A stretch of 64,000 nucleotides of DNA from Dehalococcoidia bacterium (lineage in GTDB: Bacteria; Chloroflexota; Dehalococcoidia; Plut-88900), in assembly GCA_965197585.1 (NCBI GenBank), contig OZ240215.1, forward strand, positions 2,656,001-2,720,000, in the 5' to 3' direction. Below the pieces are notes generated by a model, which was given only the letters and a program-made list of their open reading frames with translations, did no database searches and had not been told where the DNA came from. This document shows positions 9,790 to 59,976 of the stretch, piece by piece. A program made the position numbers and the translations under genes. The number at the start of each line of letters is the position of its first letter. The first letter of the stretch is position 1.

Positions 9790-11594
9790 AGAAGTACGAT
9801 AAACTGATACCGGCGGCCCTGTATGCCAGGGTATCCAGCGAACGGCAGGACGTGGACCTGTCAGTGTCCGCGCAGTTGAGGGCCCTCCGGGACTACGCCG
9901 AGAAGAACGGCTACATAGTGGCAAGGGAGTACATCGACGAGGCGGAGAGCGGACGCATCGCCGATAGGCCCGAGTTCCAGAAGATGCTGAACGAGGCCAG
10001 CAGGCCCGAGGCTCCCTTCCAGGAGATCCTCGTATGGAAATTCTCCCGGTTCACCCGTAAGCGGGAGCACGCCGTCGCCTTCAAGTCCATGCTTAGGCGG
10101 CGCGGTGTCAGGGTCGTCTCCATCACTGAGAAGGCCGACGACACTCCTACGGGCAAGCTACTTGAGGCCATCATCGAGAGCGTGGACGAGTTTTACAGCG
10201 AGAATCTGGCCCAGGAGGTCACGAGGGGCATGCGCGAGTCGGCTTCCAGAGGGTTCTGGATGACGACCAACGCCCCCTACGGCTACAAGAGGGTCTATGT
10301 CCAGGACGGGGCGAAGAAGCGCCCGAAGCTGGAACTGAACCCGCCGGCGGACGCCGTGGTCCGCCGCATCTTTGACATGGTCCTCCAGGGTAAGAGCATT
10401 CTCGACGTGACCAAGACACTCAACGCCGAGGGCATCCCCACCACCAACGGCAAGAAATGGCTCAAGACCACCATCCACACCATGCTCGACAACGAAGCTT
10501 ACACGGGGACTTTGGTCTGGGGAACCAATGCCAAGGACGGCGCTCCCCCGGTCAGGGTGGAGGAAGCCTTCCCCGCCATCGTTAGCAAGCAGGAGTTCCG
10601 AAGGGCCAAGAAGCTGCTGGGGTCCCGCGCACCCGAGAGGGTCCACCCCAGGCGGGCATCCAGCCCCTACCTGCTCAGCGGCCTTCTCAGGTGCGAGGTC
10701 TGCGGGAAGTGCCTCACGGCAGCCGAGGCCAAGAGCGGCAAGTACACATACTATGTATGCCAGTCCATGCTCAAGAGGGGCCCGGGGGCCTGCAGTGCGC
10801 CGAGGCTCAACGCCAGGACCTTCGAGAAGCTCATCGTCGATCAGATCAGAGAGAACGTTCTCACTGAGTCCAACATCCGCGACCTGGTGAGGCTGCTCGA
10901 CGAGGAGATGGACGGGGTGGCAGGGGAGCAGCGGGAGCGGCTGGCGACCATCGAGGGGGAGCTTGAGGACGTGAAGCGCAGGCTAGGCCGCATCTGGCAG
11001 GCCATCGAGACCACCGACATAGAAATGTCTGACGCCTCCGAGCGCATCAAGGAGCACCGGGAGCGCAAGGAGAGGCTGGAGATTGCCGCCGAGGAGGCGC
11101 GGGAGCTGCTCTCAGAACGGCGGCATTTCCTGGACAGCGCCGACACCATCGCCGCCTTCGCGGAGGACATGAGTGAGTTCCTGAAGACCAGTGAACTGAC
11201 CGAGACCAAGGCCTTCGTTCGGTCCTTCGTCAAGGAAATCGCCATCGGCAGCGGCAGGGCCGTCATTCTCTACTCACTGCCCACGCCGGAGGACAGCCCC
11301 ATAGGGAGCGTGGACAACGCCGAGGTCGCCCTGGACGGGCGAGTTATGAGTACAGTACGTTGTGGTACCCCCAACGGGATTCGAACCCGTGATCTCCGCC
11401 TTGAAAGGGCGGTGTCCTTGGCCGCTAGACGATGGGGGCGCGCGAAAACCGGTCGGCTGAAAATCGCCCGCCGTATGAAAACACACGCAAGGTCCAGTTG
11501 CAACCGGGGAGTGGGGCGCTGTCCTTGTGAATCAAGCGGGCATAGCCTATCATCACAAGATGCGCGGGCACGAGTTCCTGGAACGTGTGCGTAG
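9786..11594 (+). CDS. Large serine recombinase (integrase); C-terminus reads through the att/tRNA
   Basis: YARVSS catalytic Ser, FSRFTR, recombinase domain, Zn ribbon CEVCG...YYVC, coiled coil; recognisable protein ends near 11360. Confidence 0.92.
   Translation: MKKYDKLIPAALYARVSSERQDVDLSVSAQLRALRDYAEKNGYIVAREYIDEAESGRIADRPEFQKMLNEASRPEAPFQEILVWKFSRFTRKREHAVAFKSMLRRRGVRVVSITEKADDTPTGKLLEAIIESVDEFYSENLAQEVTRGMRESASRGFWMTTNAPYGYKRVYVQDGAKKRPKLELNPPADAVVRRIFDMVLQGKSILDVTKTLNAEGIPTTNGKKWLKTTIHTMLDNEAYTGTLVWGTNAKDGAPPVRVEEAFPAIVSKQEFRRAKKLLGSRAPERVHPRRASSPYLLSGLLRCEVCGKCLTAAEAKSGKYTYYVCQSMLKRGPGACSAPRLNARTFEKLIVDQIRENVLTESNIRDLVRLLDEEMDGVAGEQRERLATIEGELEDVKRRLGRIWQAIETTDIEMSDASERIKEHRERKERLEIAAEEARELLSERRHFLDSADTIAAFAEDMSEFLKTSELTETKAFVRSFVKEIAIGSGRAVILYSLPTPEDSPIGSVDNAEVALDGRVMSTVRCGTPNGIRTRDLRLERAVSLAARRWGRAKTGRLKIARRMKTHARSSCNRGVGRCPCESSGHSLSSQDARARVPGTCA
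11363..11439 (-). tRNA. tRNA-Glu(TTC)
   Basis: GCCCCCA/TGGGGGT acceptor stem, anticodon arm CCGCC-CTTTCAA-GGCGG, GGTTCGAATCC T-arm, encoded CCA. Confidence 0.97.
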
Positions 11595-24024: not shown

Positions 24025-25080
24025 TGTGGATGTCAGGTAATTCGTTGACAGAATTAGGTGGATTTAAGGGTCTCCAAAGGGGTCTTTCCATCCATTGCCT
24101 GGTGGGGTCTCTGAGTATTGTAGTAGATCAGGTATTGCTGAAGCTCGTCCTTCAGTTCCGAGACCGATTCGAAGGTTGTCCCCTCCAGCAGGTCCTCGTT
24201 CAAGGTTCTCCAGAACCGCTCTATCTTCCCGTTGGTCTGGGGCCTATAAGGGCGGGTGTAGCGGTGCTTTATGCCCAGCTCATTGAGCATCCGTTCCATG
24301 GGGTGGCCCTCGGTGTTCCTTGGGGAGGCCATCTCGGGGCCGTTGTCGGTGAGGATGGCCTCGAATTGGATGCCGTACTCCACGTTAAGGAAATTGATGG
24401 ACTTCAGAGTAGCAAACATAACGGAGAGACTCTTGATGTCTCCGACCACTTCGGCCCAGGCCAGACGGGTGTAGGCGTCGATGAGGCCCACCAGGTAGTA
24501 GCGGTGCTTGGTGCCCACGATGGTATCCCGGCTGAGGTAGTGGCTGTCCAGGTGGCCCAGCTCTCCTGCCCGGGTCTTGATGATCTTGCGCTTCGACTGC
24601 TGCATCGGCTTTGTGAGCCTATTGAAACCGTGGCGTCTGGTGATGGCGTAGATGGTGGAGGGCTTAGGGGTGTTGTGTTTAAGGATGGGTTTGAGTATGG
24701 CATAGATCTCGTAACGGTTGGTACCGTTAAGGCGCTCGTTGATGACCTTCTGCTCAATGTAGGGCAGGGTGCGGCGGGACTTCCACCCGGGACCCCGCTT
24801 ACGGGGGAGGAAGGCGTTGTCGGAGGGGGAGAGGAGGAACCGGTTGTAGTACTTGGCGAAGGTCTGACGGCTAGTGCCGTGGAAGGAGTAGAAGTCCTGG
24901 GCGAAGCGGAAACGGGGATGCTTCCCTGCCTTGACCAGTTGATACTCATGGATGAGGAACCGCCACTTCTGAATGTAGTTCCGCTCAAGGGTGAGGTCCT
25001 TGCTATTGTCTCGCATTCTCGCCTCCAGATTGGTGTTGGCCTCTTATACCAATCTGTCAACGAATTACCTAACACTTACA
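24025..25080 (-). mobile_element. IS481-family insertion sequence (1056 bp)
   Basis: TGT...ACA ends, ~28-bp imperfect IRs sharing AGGTAATTCGTTGACAGA, 5-bp direct repeat GGAAT at 24020-24024 and 25081-25085. Confidence 0.92.
24054..25016 (-). CDS. IS481-family DDE transposase
   Basis: GELGHLD, ILTDNG.E, PYRPQTNGKIERF, YN..RPH. Confidence 0.93.
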   Translation of the reverse strand: MRDNSKDLTLERNYIQKWRFLIHEYQLVKAGKHPRFRFAQDFYSFHGTSRQTFAKYYNRFLLSPSDNAFLPRKRGPGWKSRRTLPYIEQKVINERLNGTNRYEIYAILKPILKHNTPKPSTIYAITRRHGFNRLTKPMQQSKRKIIKTRAGELGHLDSHYLSRDTIVGTKHRYYLVGLIDAYTRLAWAEVVGDIKSLSVMFATLKSINFLNVEYGIQFEAILTDNGPEMASPRNTEGHPMERMLNELGIKHRYTRPYRPQTNGKIERFWRTLNEDLLEGTTFESVSELKDELQQYLIYYNTQRPHQAMDGKTPLETLKST

Positions 25081-25104
25081 GGAATGACAGGGGGAGGGGG
25101 TAGG

Positions 25105-25812
25105 TTATTCAGTTGTGTGGTTTCGGGTTCCGTTCTATTTGTTGGGGTGGTTGGCGATGGAAGACGCCTGCTGGACGATGCCCCCGTTCATGTGCCTCGG
25201 GTGCTCCGACGCCCTGGGGCAAGGGCGTCCGGCCCGCTTTTGCCGCTGCTGCGGCCTGTGGCCCTGTATACGCCGGACATGGGCAGGGACCTTCAGGGCC
25301 AGCAGGTCCGAGTCCGACTCCGGGGGGGTTGGCTGCACCGCATAAGGGCGGCTAGGAGGCCCGTCCAGCGTCCGATGCCGGGCCTCTTGCAGGCGTAATG
25401 TGTCCAAGTTTGCCGGTGCGACCCGGAGTGCAGGGACCACCGGCTCCCGGCTTTATTGAGCGGTCGGTGTACCGAGAGGGTCTCGGCGCCGGGTCTATCC
25501 GACCGCTATTCCGCTTGAAGGAGCGGCATCTCCGTTAGGAGCCTCACATGGAACGATAGCGAACCAGGGCGTCTTTCCATCGCCTGGGGGACAGGGAGAA
25601 GGGGCACGGGACCCGATGGGATGAGGAGATGGCGTCGTTTGCTTGAGCCGCAGGCCGCGGGAGGGCCATTGGGATGGGCTTGGACGTTGAGTCCTCGGAT
25701 GGGTCGGGTGGGCTTCCCTAGTTTTTGGTTCCTCCTTGAGATAGTTAGGTTGGTGTTCGAACGGTGAGGAGATTAGCACGGATGTTCAGGTGGGTCAAGG
25801 GGTTGATGTCAC
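25105..25812 (-). ncRNA. Copy A of a dispersed structured non-coding element (candidate large ncRNA plus promoter)
   Basis: Homology to 47123-47850 and 59037-59695; TTGACC-N17-TAATCT; long-range helix 25153-25170/25565-25584; no credible ORF. Confidence 0.6.
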
Positions 25813-25874
25813 AATTTAGGGGAGGGGTGGGTGAAAGAGCGGATGCGACGGATTGGCAAACGCGGGCCACCCCC

Positions 25875-26017
25875 CCCCGCTCGACCCTTCGACTTGGCTC
25901 AGGATGAGCGGCCCCGCACCGGGGATGGATTCCCGTGTCGGGGCACGAGAATGACGAGAGAGGTAAGGGTTGATTTAGGGAGAGACGCTTCAGATCCCTC
26001 GCGGGGCATCGGGATGG
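25875..26017. repeat. Cluster of REP-like palindromes (CCCTTCGAC..GCTCAGGATGAGCGG; GGATTCCCG..GAATGAC; AGATCCCTCGCGGGGC.TCGGGATG)
   Basis: Near-identical copies at ~54853-54895, ~47888-47915, ~54745-54772. Confidence 0.75.
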
Positions 26018-26090
26018 GAGGGGAGGTGGGGTGGTGAGTTAGAATTTACTTCGACATTACACCAGCTAAAGGTTCGACCGAGGAGACGAG

Positions 26091-32693: not shown

Positions 32694-32807
32694 CTTGTCT
32701 TTCAGTCAAAGGGTTGGCCTACTGTGCCGTGACATTGCTATCGTATGACTAATTTGACAAGCCGCGTCTGCGGATAGTAACGTGGCACGCACAAAGAAAT
32801 AGACCAC

Positions 32808-33168
32808 AAAGACAGTGAACGGGAGTAGTAAGCCTCAAGCGGGGGCCAGAGAGTCGGGTTAGGTGTGAGCCGACCCCAGCGCAGAGGTTGAATGGGCCCG
32901 GGAGTCGCCAACCGAAACCTTGGTGTGAACCAGGAAAGTAGGCTTGGCCGGAGAGGGCACCGTTATCAGGGCCCAGGGTATCTCGTCGGGAGGCATCAGC
33001 GCCTTCCGGTGGACGTACCTGGTTGAGATGTAGTCGGCTGACAGCTTCGATCGCCCCCTTCTTCCGGTAGCATACCGGGACGAAGGGTGAATCGAACGGG
33101 TTGGGGCCGATCAAATTAGGGTGGCACCGCGAGAAACCCCCTCGCCCCTAAGGGCGAAGGGGGTTTTT
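32808..33168 (+). promoter_or_regulatory. T-box riboswitch, Trp specifier (UGG)
   Basis: Stem I AGTA/AGAGAG/GGTG.GA motifs, GAA-TGG specifier at 32893-32895, CCGTTA, T-box AGGGTGGCACCGCG 33118-33131, terminator 33134-33168. Confidence 0.93.
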
Positions 33169-47006: not shown

Positions 47007-47122
47007 GGAATGCAGTCACCTAAACTAAGGGGGTCCGGGAGGCCAACGACAATTTTAGCATCGGGGTGGGGGGAGGGGAAAGGGTGGGGGGGTGCTCGGT
47101 TGACTAGAGGCACGCTGGGGTT

Positions 47123-47850
47123 TTATTCAGTTGTGGGGTTTGGGTTTTTGTTCTGTCTGTGTTGGGGGGCGATGGGAGACGCCTGTTGAGCCTGTCGGCC
47201 TCTACGCTCGTGCGGTGTTCCGGCTGTCGGGGGCCTGGAGGTCCGCCGAGGACGGATTGCAGCCAGCCGCGCCCTAGCGCTCGATGGAGGGCTCCGACTG
47301 CCAGGGCAGACAGTCAGGCCTTGACCCCGCCTCTGAATGCCCGCAGGCATGGTGGGGGCCAGTGATCGGGCTGTAGCCCCCTCAGATATCGTATTTGCGT
47401 GGGCCACCCGAGGGTCCAAGCGGCCCAACAGCCCCTTGCTTGATATGGCGTAAGCTCGCAGGCGGGCCAACTTCCGAGAGGGAGTCTCGGCCGGGGATAG
47501 CCGGTCCGCCACCCCTAGCTCGATAAAGCGTAAGCTCGCTGCTAACCGACCTTCGAGACGGGGTCTCGGCGGGGGATGGCCGGTCCACTATGACGCCGTC
47601 CAGGCATCTTCCATCGCCTGACTACCAGGGAAGGGGGCACGGGACCCGATGGGAAAAGGAGATGGCGCCGGTCACTTGTGCCGCGGGCCTGCGCGAAGGC
47701 CGTTGGGATGGGCTTGGACGTTGAGTCCTCGGGGGGTCGGGTGGGCTTCCCTGGGTTTTTGGTTCCTCCTTTAGGTTTAGGGTGAGTTACTAGCTAGTCG
47801 GGGATGAATATAGTACATATGTACAAGTATGGTCAAGGGGTTCGTGTCAC
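47123..47850 (-). ncRNA. Copy B of the dispersed structured non-coding element
   Basis: TTGACC-N18-TATATT with GTACATATGTAC; helix 47168-47185/47601-47618; conserved core ~47627-47771. Confidence 0.6.
47432..47587. repeat. Imperfect 80-bp tandem duplication inside copy B
   Basis: CCCCTWGCTYGATA..GCGTAAGCTCGC...CGAGA.GG.GTCTCGGC.GGGGAT.GCCGGTCC twice. Confidence 0.85.
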
Positions 47851-48016
47851 TTTTTGGGGGGCACCCCACCCATTCCGTTCTTGAGACCCCCTTCGACTCT
47901 GCTCAGGGCGAACGGAATTCACCACCCGTGGGGAGGGGTCCGGCTCGGTGAGGGTGCGTCTTCAGGAGGGATGGGTTCCTGCCTCCGCAGGAATGACGGT
48001 GGGGAGGGGGGTGGGG

Positions 48017-56433: not shown

Positions 56434-58869
56434 CTAAGCGACTATATTCACCAGCCGACCCGGTACGTAGACGACTTTCCGAGGCCCGTTCTTCATGAAG
56501 GCCCTTATCCGGTCGCTGGATAGGGCTACTTCCTTCGCCTCTTCCTCGGTGATGCCCGCCGAGACTGTTACCCGGTCTCTGACCTTGCCGTTGACCTGCA
56601 CAACGAGGGTGACTTCTTCCTCTGCGGCGAGGGCATCGTCCCATTGGGGGAAGGGTTGATTGTGAATGCTGTATTCGTAGCCTTTAGCGGCCCACAACTC
56701 CTCGGCGAGGTGGGGGGCGGTTGGGGCGAGCATTAGCAGCAACGCCCTTATCGACTCTCTCCAAGTCTCCGCGTCCACCGACCCTTCATCCAGGGCTCGG
56801 GCGAGGTGGTTGGTGAACTCCATCAGCGAAGCTAACGCAGTATTGAAATGGAACCGGTCCAGGTCCTGGTGCACCTTCTTGATGGTCTTGTGCAGCATGT
56901 GAATCGTCTGTTTAGACGACTTGCCGGGCCCCAATTCGGGGTCGTCCCGCTCCGTCAGGTCCCAGACCCGGTTGTACCAGCGCACTATCCCGTTTATCCC
57001 CTGGTCGACCCACTCTCCACCCTGGTCCCACGGCCCGATGAACATCAGGTATCCGCGAACGACGTCGGCGCCTACGGTGTCGACGTACTCGTCGGGGGTG
57101 ATGACGTTGCCACGGGACTTGCTCATCTTCTGCCTGTCGCTGATGATGATGCCCTGGTTGTAGAGCCTGACGAAGGGCTCGTCGAAGTCGAGCAGGCCGA
57201 TGTCTCGCAGGGCTTTGACGAAGAAGCGGGCGTAGAGCAGGTGCATCACCGCGTGCTCGGCGCCGCCGGTGTACTGGTCGACGGGCAGCCAGTGCTTGAT
57301 CTCCTCCGGTTTGAAAGCCGAGTCCCCGGAGTTGGGGGAAGCGTACTTTAAGAAGTACCAGGAGGAGCACATGAAGGTGTCCATGGTGTCGGTCTCCCGG
57401 CGAGCCGGGCCCCCACACTCGGGGCAGGTAGTATTCACAAACTCTTTGTGGAACGTGAGGGGTGATTCGCCGGTGGGTCTGAACTCGGCGTCTTCCGGTA
57501 GCAGCACCGGAAGTTGGTCCTCGGGGATGGGGACTATGCCGCAGGCGTTGCAATAGACCATAGGTATCGGGGCTCCCCAATACCGTTGGCGGGATATGAG
57601 CCAATCACGGATACGGTAAGAGACTGTGCCGCCACCGATGCCCTGCTCCTCCAAGGCTCGTGTAACAGCCTGCTTCCCATCTTCATTCCCAAGGCCCACG
57701 AACTGTCCTGAGTTGACCATCTCCCCGGGCCCCGTGTAAGCCTCCACAAAGTCCTCGCCGCCCCATCCAGGCGGAGCGATTACCGTCCTGATGGGAAGGT
57801 CATATTTCTTGGCGTATGCAAAGTCCCGGGTGTCGTGGGCGGGGACGCCCATGACGGCACCGGTGCCGTAGGTGAGAAGTGCGTAGTCGGCGATGAAGAT
57901 GGGGACCTTCTCGCCGTTCAGGCGGTTGGTGCAGTAGGCACCGATGAATACTCCCGTCTTCTCCTTGTCCGTAGCAAGCCGCTCTATCTCGGAGCGCCGC
58001 CTCGTCTCCTCGACGTAGGCTTGTACCTCTTCCTTCTTGTCAGGAGTAGTGAGCTGGGAAACCAGCGGATGCTCTGGGGCGAGAACCATGAAGGTCACGC
58101 CGAACACGGTGTCGGGACGGGTGGTGAAGACTCTTATCTCGGTTTGCTCAAGGCCGTACTCCTCGATGCTGAATGCAATCTCAGCTCCCTGGCTCTTGCC
58201 GATCCAGTTGGACTGCATCGTGTTTATGCGGTCGGGCCACTGGATGCTGCTGAAGTCGAGGAGTTCATCGGCGTACCTGGTGATCCTGAAGAACCACTGC
58301 TCCAAGTCTCTCCTGGTCACCGAGGAGGTACAACGTTCGCACGTACCGTCGGGGAGGACTTGCTCGTTGGCAAGGGTAGTCTGGCAGGTCGGGCACCAGT
58401 TGGCGGGGGCCTTGTTTCGGTACGCGAGCCCTGCATGGAACAGCTTGAGGAAAAGCCACTGAGTCCATTTATAGTAATCGGGCAGGGAGGTCACGACCTC
58501 ACGGTCCCAGTCGTACACAGCGCCAATGCGCTTGAGCTGCCGGCGCATGTTCTCGACGTTGCGCATGGTCCACAAGTGGGGATGGATGCCGTTCTTGATG
58601 GCGGCGTTCTCGGCGGGGAGTCCGAACGCGTCGAAACCCATGGGGTGGAGGACGTTGTAGCCCTGCATGCGCTTGAAACGGGCGTGGACGTCCGCGGGGG
58701 CCATAGCGTACCAGTGGCCGATGTGCAGGTTCCCGGAGGTGTACGGGAACATGGTGAGCTCATACCACTTGGGCTTGCCGGGGTCTTGATCCACGCGGTA
58801 CAGCCGGTCCTTGTTCCACCTTTGCTGCCACTTGGTCTCTATTGCTGACGGGTCGTATCTCAGGGGCAT
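56434..58869 (-). CDS. leuS: Leucine--tRNA ligase
   Basis: MFPY.SG.LHIGH, FTTRPDT, KMSKS. Confidence 0.98.
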   Translation of the reverse strand: MPLRYDPSAIETKWQQRWNKDRLYRVDQDPGKPKWYELTMFPYTSGNLHIGHWYAMAPADVHARFKRMQGYNVLHPMGFDAFGLPAENAAIKNGIHPHLWTMRNVENMRRQLKRIGAVYDWDREVVTSLPDYYKWTQWLFLKLFHAGLAYRNKAPANWCPTCQTTLANEQVLPDGTCERCTSSVTRRDLEQWFFRITRYADELLDFSSIQWPDRINTMQSNWIGKSQGAEIAFSIEEYGLEQTEIRVFTTRPDTVFGVTFMVLAPEHPLVSQLTTPDKKEEVQAYVEETRRRSEIERLATDKEKTGVFIGAYCTNRLNGEKVPIFIADYALLTYGTGAVMGVPAHDTRDFAYAKKYDLPIRTVIAPPGWGGEDFVEAYTGPGEMVNSGQFVGLGNEDGKQAVTRALEEQGIGGGTVSYRIRDWLISRQRYWGAPIPMVYCNACGIVPIPEDQLPVLLPEDAEFRPTGESPLTFHKEFVNTTCPECGGPARRETDTMDTFMCSSWYFLKYASPNSGDSAFKPEEIKHWLPVDQYTGGAEHAVMHLLYARFFVKALRDIGLLDFDEPFVRLYNQGIIISDRQKMSKSRGNVITPDEYVDTVGADVVRGYLMFIGPWDQGGEWVDQGINGIVRWYNRVWDLTERDDPELGPGKSSKQTIHMLHKTIKKVHQDLDRFHFNTALASLMEFTNHLARALDEGSVDAETWRESIRALLLMLAPTAPHLAEELWAAKGYEYSIHNQPFPQWDDALAAEEEVTLVVQVNGKVRDRVTVSAGITEEEAKEVALSSDRIRAFMKNGPRKVVYVPGRLVNIVA

Positions 58870-59036
58870 TTAACTGTCCGTTCTCCTAAGTCCTAACTCT
58901 CCCGACAATCGCAAAAGCTACCACGGGGTGGGTGGGTGTGCAAGGATGGGCACTCGTTCGGGCGGGTTGGTGATGCGCCGGGTTTTCTTCAGTCCTCCTG
59001 AGGCGGATCCTTCAGAGGCGGATGTTCCATCTTCGA

Positions 59037-59695
59037 TTGTGGGGTTTCGGTTTGGTTTGTTTGGGAGGGGGCAGGCGATGGAAGGTCCGGGACTAGAAAC
59101 CAGGCCGGAGGTTGTTGCCGAGCCGTCGGCGCCGGGCTGGATTATCCCCACATGTTGTCGGCTGTGGTCAGGGTTGTGTGGGGCCGATCCCACCGGCAGC
59201 GGCACTTGACCGGACCGCTGACGGGGAAGATGCCGCCTGAGGCGGTCTTTCAGAACCGGCGTCCCGGTGCATCCGCCGGGTAGACGGATGGCAGGGACGG
59301 CGGGACAAACAAGGACACGAGGGCCTTGCTAAACCGGGGGTCGGTTGACTTACCCGGGAAACCGGCACGCAATGGGCCGGGGTAAACGCACCCGGTAATG
59401 GGGGCGTTGAATCGGCAGGGGCCCTGGACGGGGCCTGCCGCGTATAGTCTGTGGACATTCCATCGCCTGGAAATTGGGGGAAGGGGCACGGGACCCGGGG
59501 GAAGAGGAGATGGCGACTTTTGCTTGAGCCGCGGGTCCTTGGTAGGGCCGTTGGGATGGGCTGAGGCGTTGAGTCCTCGGGTGGGTCTAGTGGGCTTCCC
59601 TGGGTTGTGGTTCCTCCTTGAGATAGTTGGATTGGTGTTCGAACGGTGGGGAGCATAGCACAAGTGTTCAGGTAGGGTCAAGGGGTTCGTGTCAC
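59037..59695 (-). ncRNA. Copy C of the dispersed structured non-coding element
   Basis: TTGACC-N18-TATGCT with GAACACTTGTGC; helix 59072-59095/59445-59469; conserved core ~59477-59619. Confidence 0.6.
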
Positions 59696-59729
59696 TTTTG
59701 GGGGGACACCGCCCCAGCCCCACAGGGGA

Positions 59730-59930
59730 ACCCTCACCCCCTTGATCCCCCTCTCACGCCACGGGCGCACGCCCAGGCGCATCTACGACATCTTCGACCC
59801 TTAGGGCGGTCAAGGGAGAGGGGGAAATAAGAATAGAGGTCCACGTGCGTGCCCTGCACGCACGTGGACCTCTAATTCAGTACTTGGGGAGGGGGATGGA
59901 TTCCCGATCAGGGTGGGGAATGACGGGGGG
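59730..59930. repeat. Cluster of REP-like palindromes including a 19-bp perfect inverted repeat (59834-59874)
   Basis: CCCTCACCCC..CCCCCTCTC...GGGAGAGGGG; TAGAGGTCCACGTGCGTGC-CCT-GCACGCACGTGGACCTCTA; GGATTCCCGATC..GGAATGAC. Confidence 0.7.
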
Positions 59931-59976
59931 TGGGGGAAGGTTGACCGGTGTCGGGGGTGGGGATAGGGTGGGGGGG

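Follow-up and report, generated by a model that had tools for sequence, protein, structure and literature searches.

The stretch analysed, called the window here, comprises 64,000 nucleotides from a Dehalococcoidia bacterium (Chloroflexota; Dehalococcoidia; Plut-88900; GenBank assembly GCA_965197585.1, contig OZ240215.1, forward-strand positions 2,656,001 to 2,720,000). The source genome, G000, is a single contig of 3,429,519 bp with a G+C content of 59%. Upstream of leuS, on the minus strand, the window holds a repeated element (copy C, 58949..59702), two further copies of which (A and B) lie elsewhere in the window. Within copy C, positions 59072-59469 form a long-range helix that encloses a hairpin-rich cassette. 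This segment is probably the closing stem and exchangeable middle domain of a non-autonomous element without open reading frames (ORFs), that is, a miniature inverted-repeat transposable element (MITE) or mobile insertion cassette related to insertion sequences (ISs) of the IS481/IS3-like type.

Copy C carries a class-4 cassette and was delimited from the repeat coverage profile, which places its 5' edge approximately, within about 3 nt; its 3' edge was fixed by two comparisons of filled with empty sites. Read in the minus sense, the parts of the element follow in the order sigma-70 promoter, short leader, AAGGAGG, C-rich 5' domain, arm 1, cassette, arm 2 and tail. The promoter of copy C, found by promoter scan, lies at 59652..59681 (TTGACC, 18-nt spacer, TG-TATGCT). 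The conserved 5' domain (59470..59619; C 44%, G 22%; z -1.89 when folded alone) starts with the Shine-Dalgarno (SD)-like motif AAGGAGG at 59613-59619; no start codon comes after this motif. In the RNA sense, the helix has its 5' arm (arm 1) at 59445..59469, the cassette interior occupies 59096..59444 (about ten hairpins around a multiloop, with a non-coding pattern of insertions and deletions) and arm 2, the 3' arm, 59072..59095. The 3' tail (58949..59071) comprises a CA-rich, G-poor tract, two modules of about 21 nt and a degenerate right terminal repeat ending ..CGAACGAGTGCC. Next to it, the 5 bp CATCC at 58944..58948 represent a copy of the target site, and the same 5 bp abut the -35 box at the empty site of a congener, G001. 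The leuS promoter at 58915..58943 (TTGCAC, 17-nt spacer, TAGCTT) was read from the sequence and belongs to the host, since the empty leuS site shows it as well. The leuS ORF (58869..56434) was taken from the ORF list, and its orthologue in the congener G005 has LeuRS domains. All of these features apart from the target-site copy are assigned to the minus strand.

Copy A (25081..25820, minus strand, class-6 cassette) has an approximate 5' edge and a 3' tail that abuts, or is cut by, an IS. Its arms lie at 25565-25584 and 25153-25170, the cassette at 25171-25564, and its promoter, TTGACC-17-TAATCT at 25770-25798, was read by eye: it falls below the threshold of the scan tool, which calls copies C and B, and its -10 box is weaker. 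Copy B (47095..47857, minus strand, class-5 cassette, both edges approximate) is located upstream of uvrA, with arms at 47601-47618 and 47168-47185, cassette at 47186-47600 and promoter at 47807-47836. A minus-strand terminator at the 3' end was not predicted by the scan tool in copies A, B or C. A plus-strand terminator-like hairpin seen in copy B was dropped as a candidate, being absent from copy C.

Copies were collected by BLAST of the conserved flanking blocks against G000, which placed the right block at 66 positions and the left block at 58. From these, 51 full copies were paired up, so that G000 holds at least 51, and together with 49 copies from eight congeners they gave the set of 100 used for the helix and the cassettes. 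Whole elements measure 0.75-1.1 kb. The leader exists in three versions (subtypes L1, L2 and L3), and the 5' domain has a median length of 154 nt and by itself is not significantly folded. The helix spans 16-25 bp and the cassette about 300-550 nt, or about 300-530 nt when measured from one arm core to the other. The tail (A 40%, C 38%, G 12%) contains 0-3 copies of the module of about 21 nt and is followed in many copies by the right terminal repeat. The number of these tandem modules differs among element copies, and the module (window 58990-59040 and equivalent tails) contains a small hairpin, TCCGCCTCWGGAGGA, in which an SD-like GGAGGA is buried. The tail modules also include a 13-codon ORF, which was considered and rejected, as it has no SD and is missing from many copies.

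The initial annotation had described the closing helix in copies A, B and C with enclosed lengths of 394, 415 and 349 nt and several small stems inside. Reading of the sequence confirmed the lengths, the stems and the arms at 25153-25170/25565-25584, 47168-47185/47601-47618 and 59072-59095/59445-59469. It also confirmed that the inner arm of copy C has changed in step on both sides, to GGTCC:GGACC plus GACTA:TAGTC where the others have GACGCC:GGCGTC. Pairing of the arms was kept in 100/100 copies, at -30 to -46 kcal/mol for 34-nt arms. The outer 10-11 bp of the helix are almost invariant in sequence; over the outer 11 bp of the 100 copies, 976 cells were Watson-Crick, 18 were wobbles that fit the minus strand, 12 were wobbles that fit the plus strand and 94 were transversion mismatches. 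The inner helix falls into types, either GACGCC:GGCGTC, or GGTCC:GGACC followed by GACTA:TAGTC or GACTC:GAGTC, with further variants. Inner arms paired with their own partner at -16.8 kcal/mol, compared with -12.7 kcal/mol when paired with the arms of other classes. The outer helix, otherwise invariant, has undergone a full compensatory change in one copy of G001; intermediates of both kinds occur as well.

Folding of 59072-59469 gave -183.6 kcal/mol on the minus strand (z -5.77) and -204.5 kcal/mol on the plus strand (z -4.26), and 0/100 dinucleotide shuffles folded as well on either strand. The segment thus folds better than its shuffles and arm pairing is kept in further copies, so that neither of the two findings named in the initial annotation as fatal to a structured domain was obtained. 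When single cassette classes were aligned, the alignments folded at -60 to -185 kcal/mol whichever strand was taken; 0-13 pairs per class had changed on both sides, and 0.5-6% of the cells were non-canonical. Stem changes were counted in pairs predicted on both strands. Among 43 double changes, 33 restored a Watson-Crick pair, one gave G-U and nine broke the pair; by our arithmetic, three of the nine possible double changes would restore Watson-Crick pairing. Single changes over all stems comprised 54 minus-fitting wobbles, 36 plus-fitting wobbles (p = 0.07) and 42 mismatches on both strands.

The minus-strand sigma-70 promoter is present in 50 of the 51 copies of G000, with spacers of 17-18 nt. 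Its -35 box starts TTGAC in 49 copies (TTGACC, TTGACT or TTGACA in 48), and its -10 box is TATATT or TATTAT in 42. Contigs from four RNA libraries of two studies (two of the libraries labelled sponge metagenome) cover the class-4 cassette and the 5' domain within 59078-59573 at 90-97% identity; these are contigs given without strand or ends, and DNA carry-over is possible. None extends over 59597-59710 or 58913-58969, and several stop at the arms; because contigs break at repeat borders, their ends are uninformative on transcript ends. The cassettes are non-coding, since 194 of the 221 gaps in their alignments are not multiples of three (27 are). Small protein genes inside the cassette were rejected on the same grounds and because open stretches were inconsistent within classes.

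Cassettes were not different in every copy, as the initial annotation had supposed: the 100 copies fall into 14 classes, many of them common to several species, and the earlier impression arose from sampling, in that A, B and C chanced to come from three different classes (6, 5 and 4, respectively). In G000, six main classes account for 11, 9, 9, 8, 6 and 5 of the 51 copies, and three copies are singletons. Cassette classes occur in shuffled combinations with leader types and tail variants. The orientation of the cassette with respect to the frame was constant in 100/100 copies (1593 same-strand matches against two palindromic ones), and an inverton was ruled out, as no inverted cassette was found among them. 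Cassette sequences were found nowhere in G000 outside their own class, coverage being 5-10 over the cassettes of A, B and C. Rfam 15 gave no match for the element in the window, for copy C (with E up to 10, chance-level hits only) or for representatives of 13 classes, and membership of any Rfam 15 family was ruled out, as no covariance model matched at its gathering score.

Orthologous loci were compared in a set of 22, made up of 20 loci from two congeners and two leuS loci. In 17 of these the downstream 1.5 kb maps beside a parsed G000 element in the same orientation; of the other five, four also hold a G000 element that the parser missed and one corresponds to an empty site. In the same-class orthologous pairs (n = 11), identity was 0.962 for the cassette, 0.989 and 0.985 for the two arms, 0.913 for the tail and 0.899 for the 5' domain; the least conserved codon phase of the neighbouring gene, used as a proxy for third positions, gave 0.854. 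The cassette exceeded this proxy in 11/11 pairs and the 5' domain in 8/11. These sequence comparisons indicate that, within a class, the cassette is under purifying selection. The earlier view that structure rather than sequence is selected holds for the helix and the stems, which the compensatory double changes show to be kept by selection; it does not hold within a class, where the sequence itself is highly conserved.

Six of the 17 orthologous pairs failed the same-class criterion, five being clearly different and one partly alike. At leuS, class 4 is present in G000 and G002 and class 9 in G005, in the same frame; over the first 1400 nt of the leuS gene itself, G000 and G005 show 95% identity. 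The cassette is also swapped as a whole, presumably when copies recombine via the conserved frame around it.

It is very improbable that the cassette is the decaying interior of a non-autonomous transposon which looks structured through accumulated palindromic repeats. G000 is rich in hairpins resembling repetitive extragenic palindromes (REPs), one cassette class contains such a hairpin, and any function of the cassette is putative. Set against this are identities above those of third codon positions and of the element's own 5' domain, the excess of compensatory double changes, and the confinement of cassette sequences to their own class within the genome.

Evidence for transposition was obtained from the ends and from filled and empty sites. 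Copies of leader subtype L2 run from TGATCCCGTTCAC.. to ..GAACGAGTACA, with tips TG..CA. The left end scored 16.5 against the reverse complement of the right end, a value matched by 1/2000 shuffles; these imperfect terminal inverted repeats apply only to the L2 leader subtype and a few long forms. The 5-mers just outside the left and right tips, compared by eye, were identical in 8/17 copies and agreed at no fewer than 4/5 positions in 13/17, which gives a target duplication of 5 bp. At leuS, an element is present in G000, G002, G005 and G007, and G001 has an empty site. At a second site, filled in G005 and empty in G000, homology resumes at the 5 bp.

No transposase gene was found inside the element. 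The only ORF-bearing 'long' copy is an element into which an IS has been inserted: the apparently autonomous 2.1-kb copy at C1:659305 proved to contain another rve IS in the element's left repeat. This second IS, whose transposase has 423 amino acids, lies inside the left terminal repeat at L001 562-1833 (G000:C1:659361-660632), and the same junction between it and the element occurs at another locus, in the 5' flank of L061 (G005).

A candidate for mobilisation in trans is the resident IS of about 1.06 kb, present in about 20 copies with TG..CA tips, one of which adjoins copy A (24025..25080, minus strand) and encodes a transposase of 320 amino acids with rve/rve_3 domains (24054..25016, minus strand). 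Over 28 positions, the right end of the element agrees with the left end of this IS at 18 (equalled by 0/2000 shuffles) and with its right end at 16. The right end being alike and the left end not, mobilisation in trans by the resident IS is plausible. Copies of this IS are about 89-100% identical, and the 15 examined sit in a REP-like hairpin (GTCATTCC..GGAATC) with the 5-bp duplication ATTCC. Antisense pairing between the element RNA and the resident IS gave only short matches at chance level.

A solo left terminal repeat of 34 nt was found against the -35 box of the groES-groEL promoter (L002 1463-1500; G000:C1:3404962 onward), which also has a CIRCE-like inverted repeat. The solo repeat may be a remnant left after deletion of the element body.

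Right ends were located in G000 with a sequence pattern that gave 23 matches, two of them spurious and 21 real. In most cases the right end is directed towards a host gene, and exactly 5 bp separate it from the host -35 hexamer downstream. The hexamer after the 5 bp starts TTG in 13/21 cases, TTT in four, TAG in two, TGG in one and ATG in one, and in most of these sites a -10-like hexamer follows about 17 nt further on. In other genomes TTG follows the 5 bp at 8/10 loci; the genome-wide frequency of TTG is 1.3%. This precise placement may reflect either a target preference of the transposase or selection on position. One copy (C1:1531385 onward) precedes a tRNA gene and is separated from its promoter by 5 bp; the targets thus include RNA genes besides protein genes.

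The first plausible downstream ORF, after filtering by codon-position G+C, is co-oriented in 42/51 copies, and a convergent gene faces the other 9/51. Co-oriented downstream ORFs tested in congeners had Pfam domains in 14/14 cases, with unrelated functions. The co-orientation would suit a cis-acting leader (a riboswitch, attenuator or insulator) that gates read-through from the element's own promoter, each class sensing a different signal. In most copies the downstream ORF starts about 70-180 nt past the element, the scan tool predicts no intrinsic terminator at its end, and the C-rich, G-poor 5' domain and the tail resemble loading sites for Rho, the gene for which is present. We nevertheless regard a leader of this kind as improbable. 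The cassette class is not tied to the gene, as the six unlike pairs among the 17 orthologous loci in sister species illustrate; the genes downstream are functionally diverse (amidohydrolases, tRNA synthetases, monooxygenases, a transporter, an aminotransferase); host genes retain their own promoter between element and start codon; a share of the copies faces a convergent gene; and no Rfam family matched. Because class and neighbouring gene are not tied, a role of the cassette in trans or for the element itself is favoured over that of a gene-specific leader.

The initial annotation had likened the element to the RNA of retrons or to a scaffold-plus-guide RNA. Two kinds of RNA come into question here, msr/msd RNAs of the retron type and the scaffolds of RNA-guided nucleases or recombinases (omega-RNA, bridge RNA). 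They would share with the element inverted repeats that close a structured non-coding RNA, like retron a1/a2, and a transcript that would run past the element end into flanking DNA, like omega-RNAs. Searches for the PF00078 reverse transcriptase gave 0 matches in the whole genome (92% complete), control genomes being matched, and those for the PF07282 TnpB domain likewise gave 0. A hypervariable guide-like segment was not seen in the alignments of classes 3 and 4, along which variation is evenly spread. HEARO, retron and related Rfam models did not match; IscB was covered by the HEARO model only, with no separate search. With neither a reverse transcriptase nor a TnpB gene in the genome, there is no support for reading the element as a retron or a guide RNA; taken together, these results largely refute both readings and leave them almost no weight. 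Nine IS110-family transposase genes are present in G000, of which only two adjoin copies among the 51, upstream and as separate insertions; an IS110 bridge RNA was ruled out accordingly. These two genes (G000:C1:1396256-1396699 and 3412979-3413422) lie directly upstream of the element copies in the same orientation. Their common junction suggests that an IS110-family IS targets a repeat adjoining the element, since both junctions share sequence.

The family was found in 8/8 other species of the genus with a 201-nt 5'-domain query, with 49-80 candidate places per genome at first look, and the same query detected it in 0/3 genomes from other genera of the taxonomic family and in 0/49 from the rest of the class. 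An exact two-motif pattern run against one genome per prokaryote species gave at least 92 matches, and among the matches listed all were in the same eight assemblies. The element family is known only from one genus of Dehalococcoidia. Full-text literature searching, supplements not covered, found no description of it.

Intergenic DNA of G000 is a mosaic of repeat modules, as at window positions 59705-59940 and 25830-26040. Short repeats with 10-60 copies per genome lie upstream of elements and include REP-like hairpins, a terminator module with a 19-bp stem and G-rich blocks. The terminator-like hairpin upstream of copy C (59834..59874, minus strand; 19 pairs followed by a T-run) is such a repeated module and lies outside the element. 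The window also contains a T-box leader (32806-33152, plus strand, 99.4 bits) and a tRNA-Glu gene (11363-11439, minus strand), both ordinary and without relation to the element.

The element meets the defining features of a non-autonomous IS-derived element. With IS481/IS3-type ISs (rve DDE transposases) it shares TG..CA tips, a short target duplication and the likeness of its right end to the left end of the resident IS (18/28); it differs in having no transposase gene and a diverged left end, and its target is the edge of a -35 box, whereas the resident IS targets a REP-like hairpin. Mobile insertion cassettes are flanked by IS ends, lack a transposase, carry cargo and are moved in trans, their known passengers being protein genes. 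The element resembles them in its IS-related terminal repeats, missing transposase, passenger segment and presumed mobilisation in trans, but here the passenger is a promoter together with a large non-coding RNA domain.

In how they work, promoter-bearing MITEs such as Correia would come closest to the element, which is larger and has an RNA cargo. Correia elements of Neisseria are described as multi-copy, transposase-less MITEs with inverted repeats located just upstream of genes (PMC10969869). According to the same source, their sigma-70 promoters can drive the neighbouring gene, and their transcribed inverted repeats form stems that are cut by RNase III (PMC10969869). The present element has the multi-copy state, lack of transposase, inverted repeats, sigma-70 promoter and gene-upstream placement in common with them. 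Correia elements are about 0.1-0.15 kb long, far below the size of the element here (0.75-1.1 kb). Further differences are that the long-range helix is internal and distinct from the terminal repeats, that it encloses a structured cargo of 300-550 nt in at least 14 classes under apparent purifying selection, and that there is a 5-bp duplication with insertion 5 bp from the -35 box.

Three other systems share part of this architecture. Retron msr/msd RNAs likewise have flanking inverted repeats that close a structured RNA; here, by contrast, a reverse transcriptase is missing from the genome, each genome has about 50 copies, the repeats enclose a segment several times as long and the whole is borne by a transposon. 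GOLLD, ROOL, OLE and raiA are ORF-free, intricately folded RNAs of several hundred nucleotides whose function is unknown. The element would resemble them as a large, folded, ORF-free RNA, but it has no Rfam match, it is mobile and exists in many copies, its middle domain is exchangeable and it is known from one genus only. In the precursors of 16S and 23S rRNA, RNase III stems, long-range duplexes of about 20 bp, bracket a large structured RNA transcribed from a strong promoter. The likeness of these stems to the helix described here is a functional analogy only; cleavage of the helix by RNase III is predicted from the presence of rnc and from a duplex of about 16-25 bp.

Several observations weigh against an IS-derived element with a transcribed cassette. 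The left end of the element is unlike the ends of the resident IS (7/28 and 6/28), and leader subtypes L1 and L3 have no clean left end. Most copies are syntenic between species, so that movement of the element is old or rare. Copies that face a convergent gene make up 9/51, and the RNA-library contigs carry the reservations stated with them. Gene conversion among same-class copies could partly account for the high identity of orthologues. The signals for the folding strand are near-even, as the caution expressed in the initial annotation had rightly allowed: arm duplexes average -36.8 kcal/mol on the plus strand and -35.8 on the minus strand (plus better in 62 copies, minus in 33, equal in five; n = 100), the outer-helix wobbles are 18 to 12 for the minus strand, and the preponderance of minus-fitting wobbles over all stems is slight and is reversed in class 4, that of copy C (6 against 13). 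Helix and stems would therefore also suit a role in DNA or on the plus strand. The wobble counts do not decide which of the two strands folds; the direction of the promoter speaks for minus.

If the arms and internal palindromes worked in DNA, as repeats for recombination or transposase binding or as hairpins in single-stranded DNA, the transcript would be incidental. The lack of strand asymmetry in the arm wobbles would fit, as would the sequence conservation of both arms of the outer 10 bp in nearly all 100 copies and the mostly Watson-Crick stems, which form equally on either strand. We consider such a role unlikely, given that the fixed cassette orientation speaks against inversion, that a strong promoter directed into the cassette is kept in all but one of the G000 copies, that the z-score is stronger on the minus strand, that the pooled stem wobbles lean to minus, and that no recombinase gene is linked to the copies, IS110 genes adjoining only two.

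For the IS-derived element, the following sequence of events can be proposed. The rve transposase of the resident IS would move the element in trans, and the minus strand would be transcribed. The strong SD-like motif may bind 30S subunits and thereby shield the 5' end from RNase J. The long-range helix would make the cassette an independently folding RNA domain and is most likely a processing stem of the RNase III type, as in rRNA precursors and Correia elements; a cut there would set the cassette RNA free and separate it from the message that follows. Rho may be loaded on the frame, which is rich in C and poor in G. G000 has the genes for all three factors, RNase III, Rho and RNase J, which makes these processing, loading and protection steps possible. 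Homologous recombination through the conserved frame would exchange cassettes.

More tentatively, the whole may be a mobile RNA gene of a new kind, in which the transposon shell homes to the upstream edge of sigma-70 -35 boxes and the cargo is a large selected non-coding RNA. Its plug-in middle domain, in at least 14 interchangeable versions, would be freed by a cut in the helix and act in trans, to the benefit of the host or of the element. If this were so, the family would not be decaying transposon debris but a library of functional RNAs, which transposition and recombination spread and reshuffle.

Bacterial MITEs are usually short and are commonly viewed as junk or as accidental promoters. 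The element described here is one without a transposase, whose folded RNA domain of 0.4 kb changes at a lower rate than synonymous sites. Many interchangeable versions of this domain occur, and between sister species one takes the place of another at orthologous loci. If the placement of the element's right end 5 bp from the -35 box is due to an rve transposase, this would be a target preference not reported before; otherwise selection on position would have to be very strong. Should the RNA prove functional, it would be a tractable mobile gene for a large non-coding RNA in an uncultured symbiont lineage; should it not, the element still illustrates how transposons rewire promoter regions.

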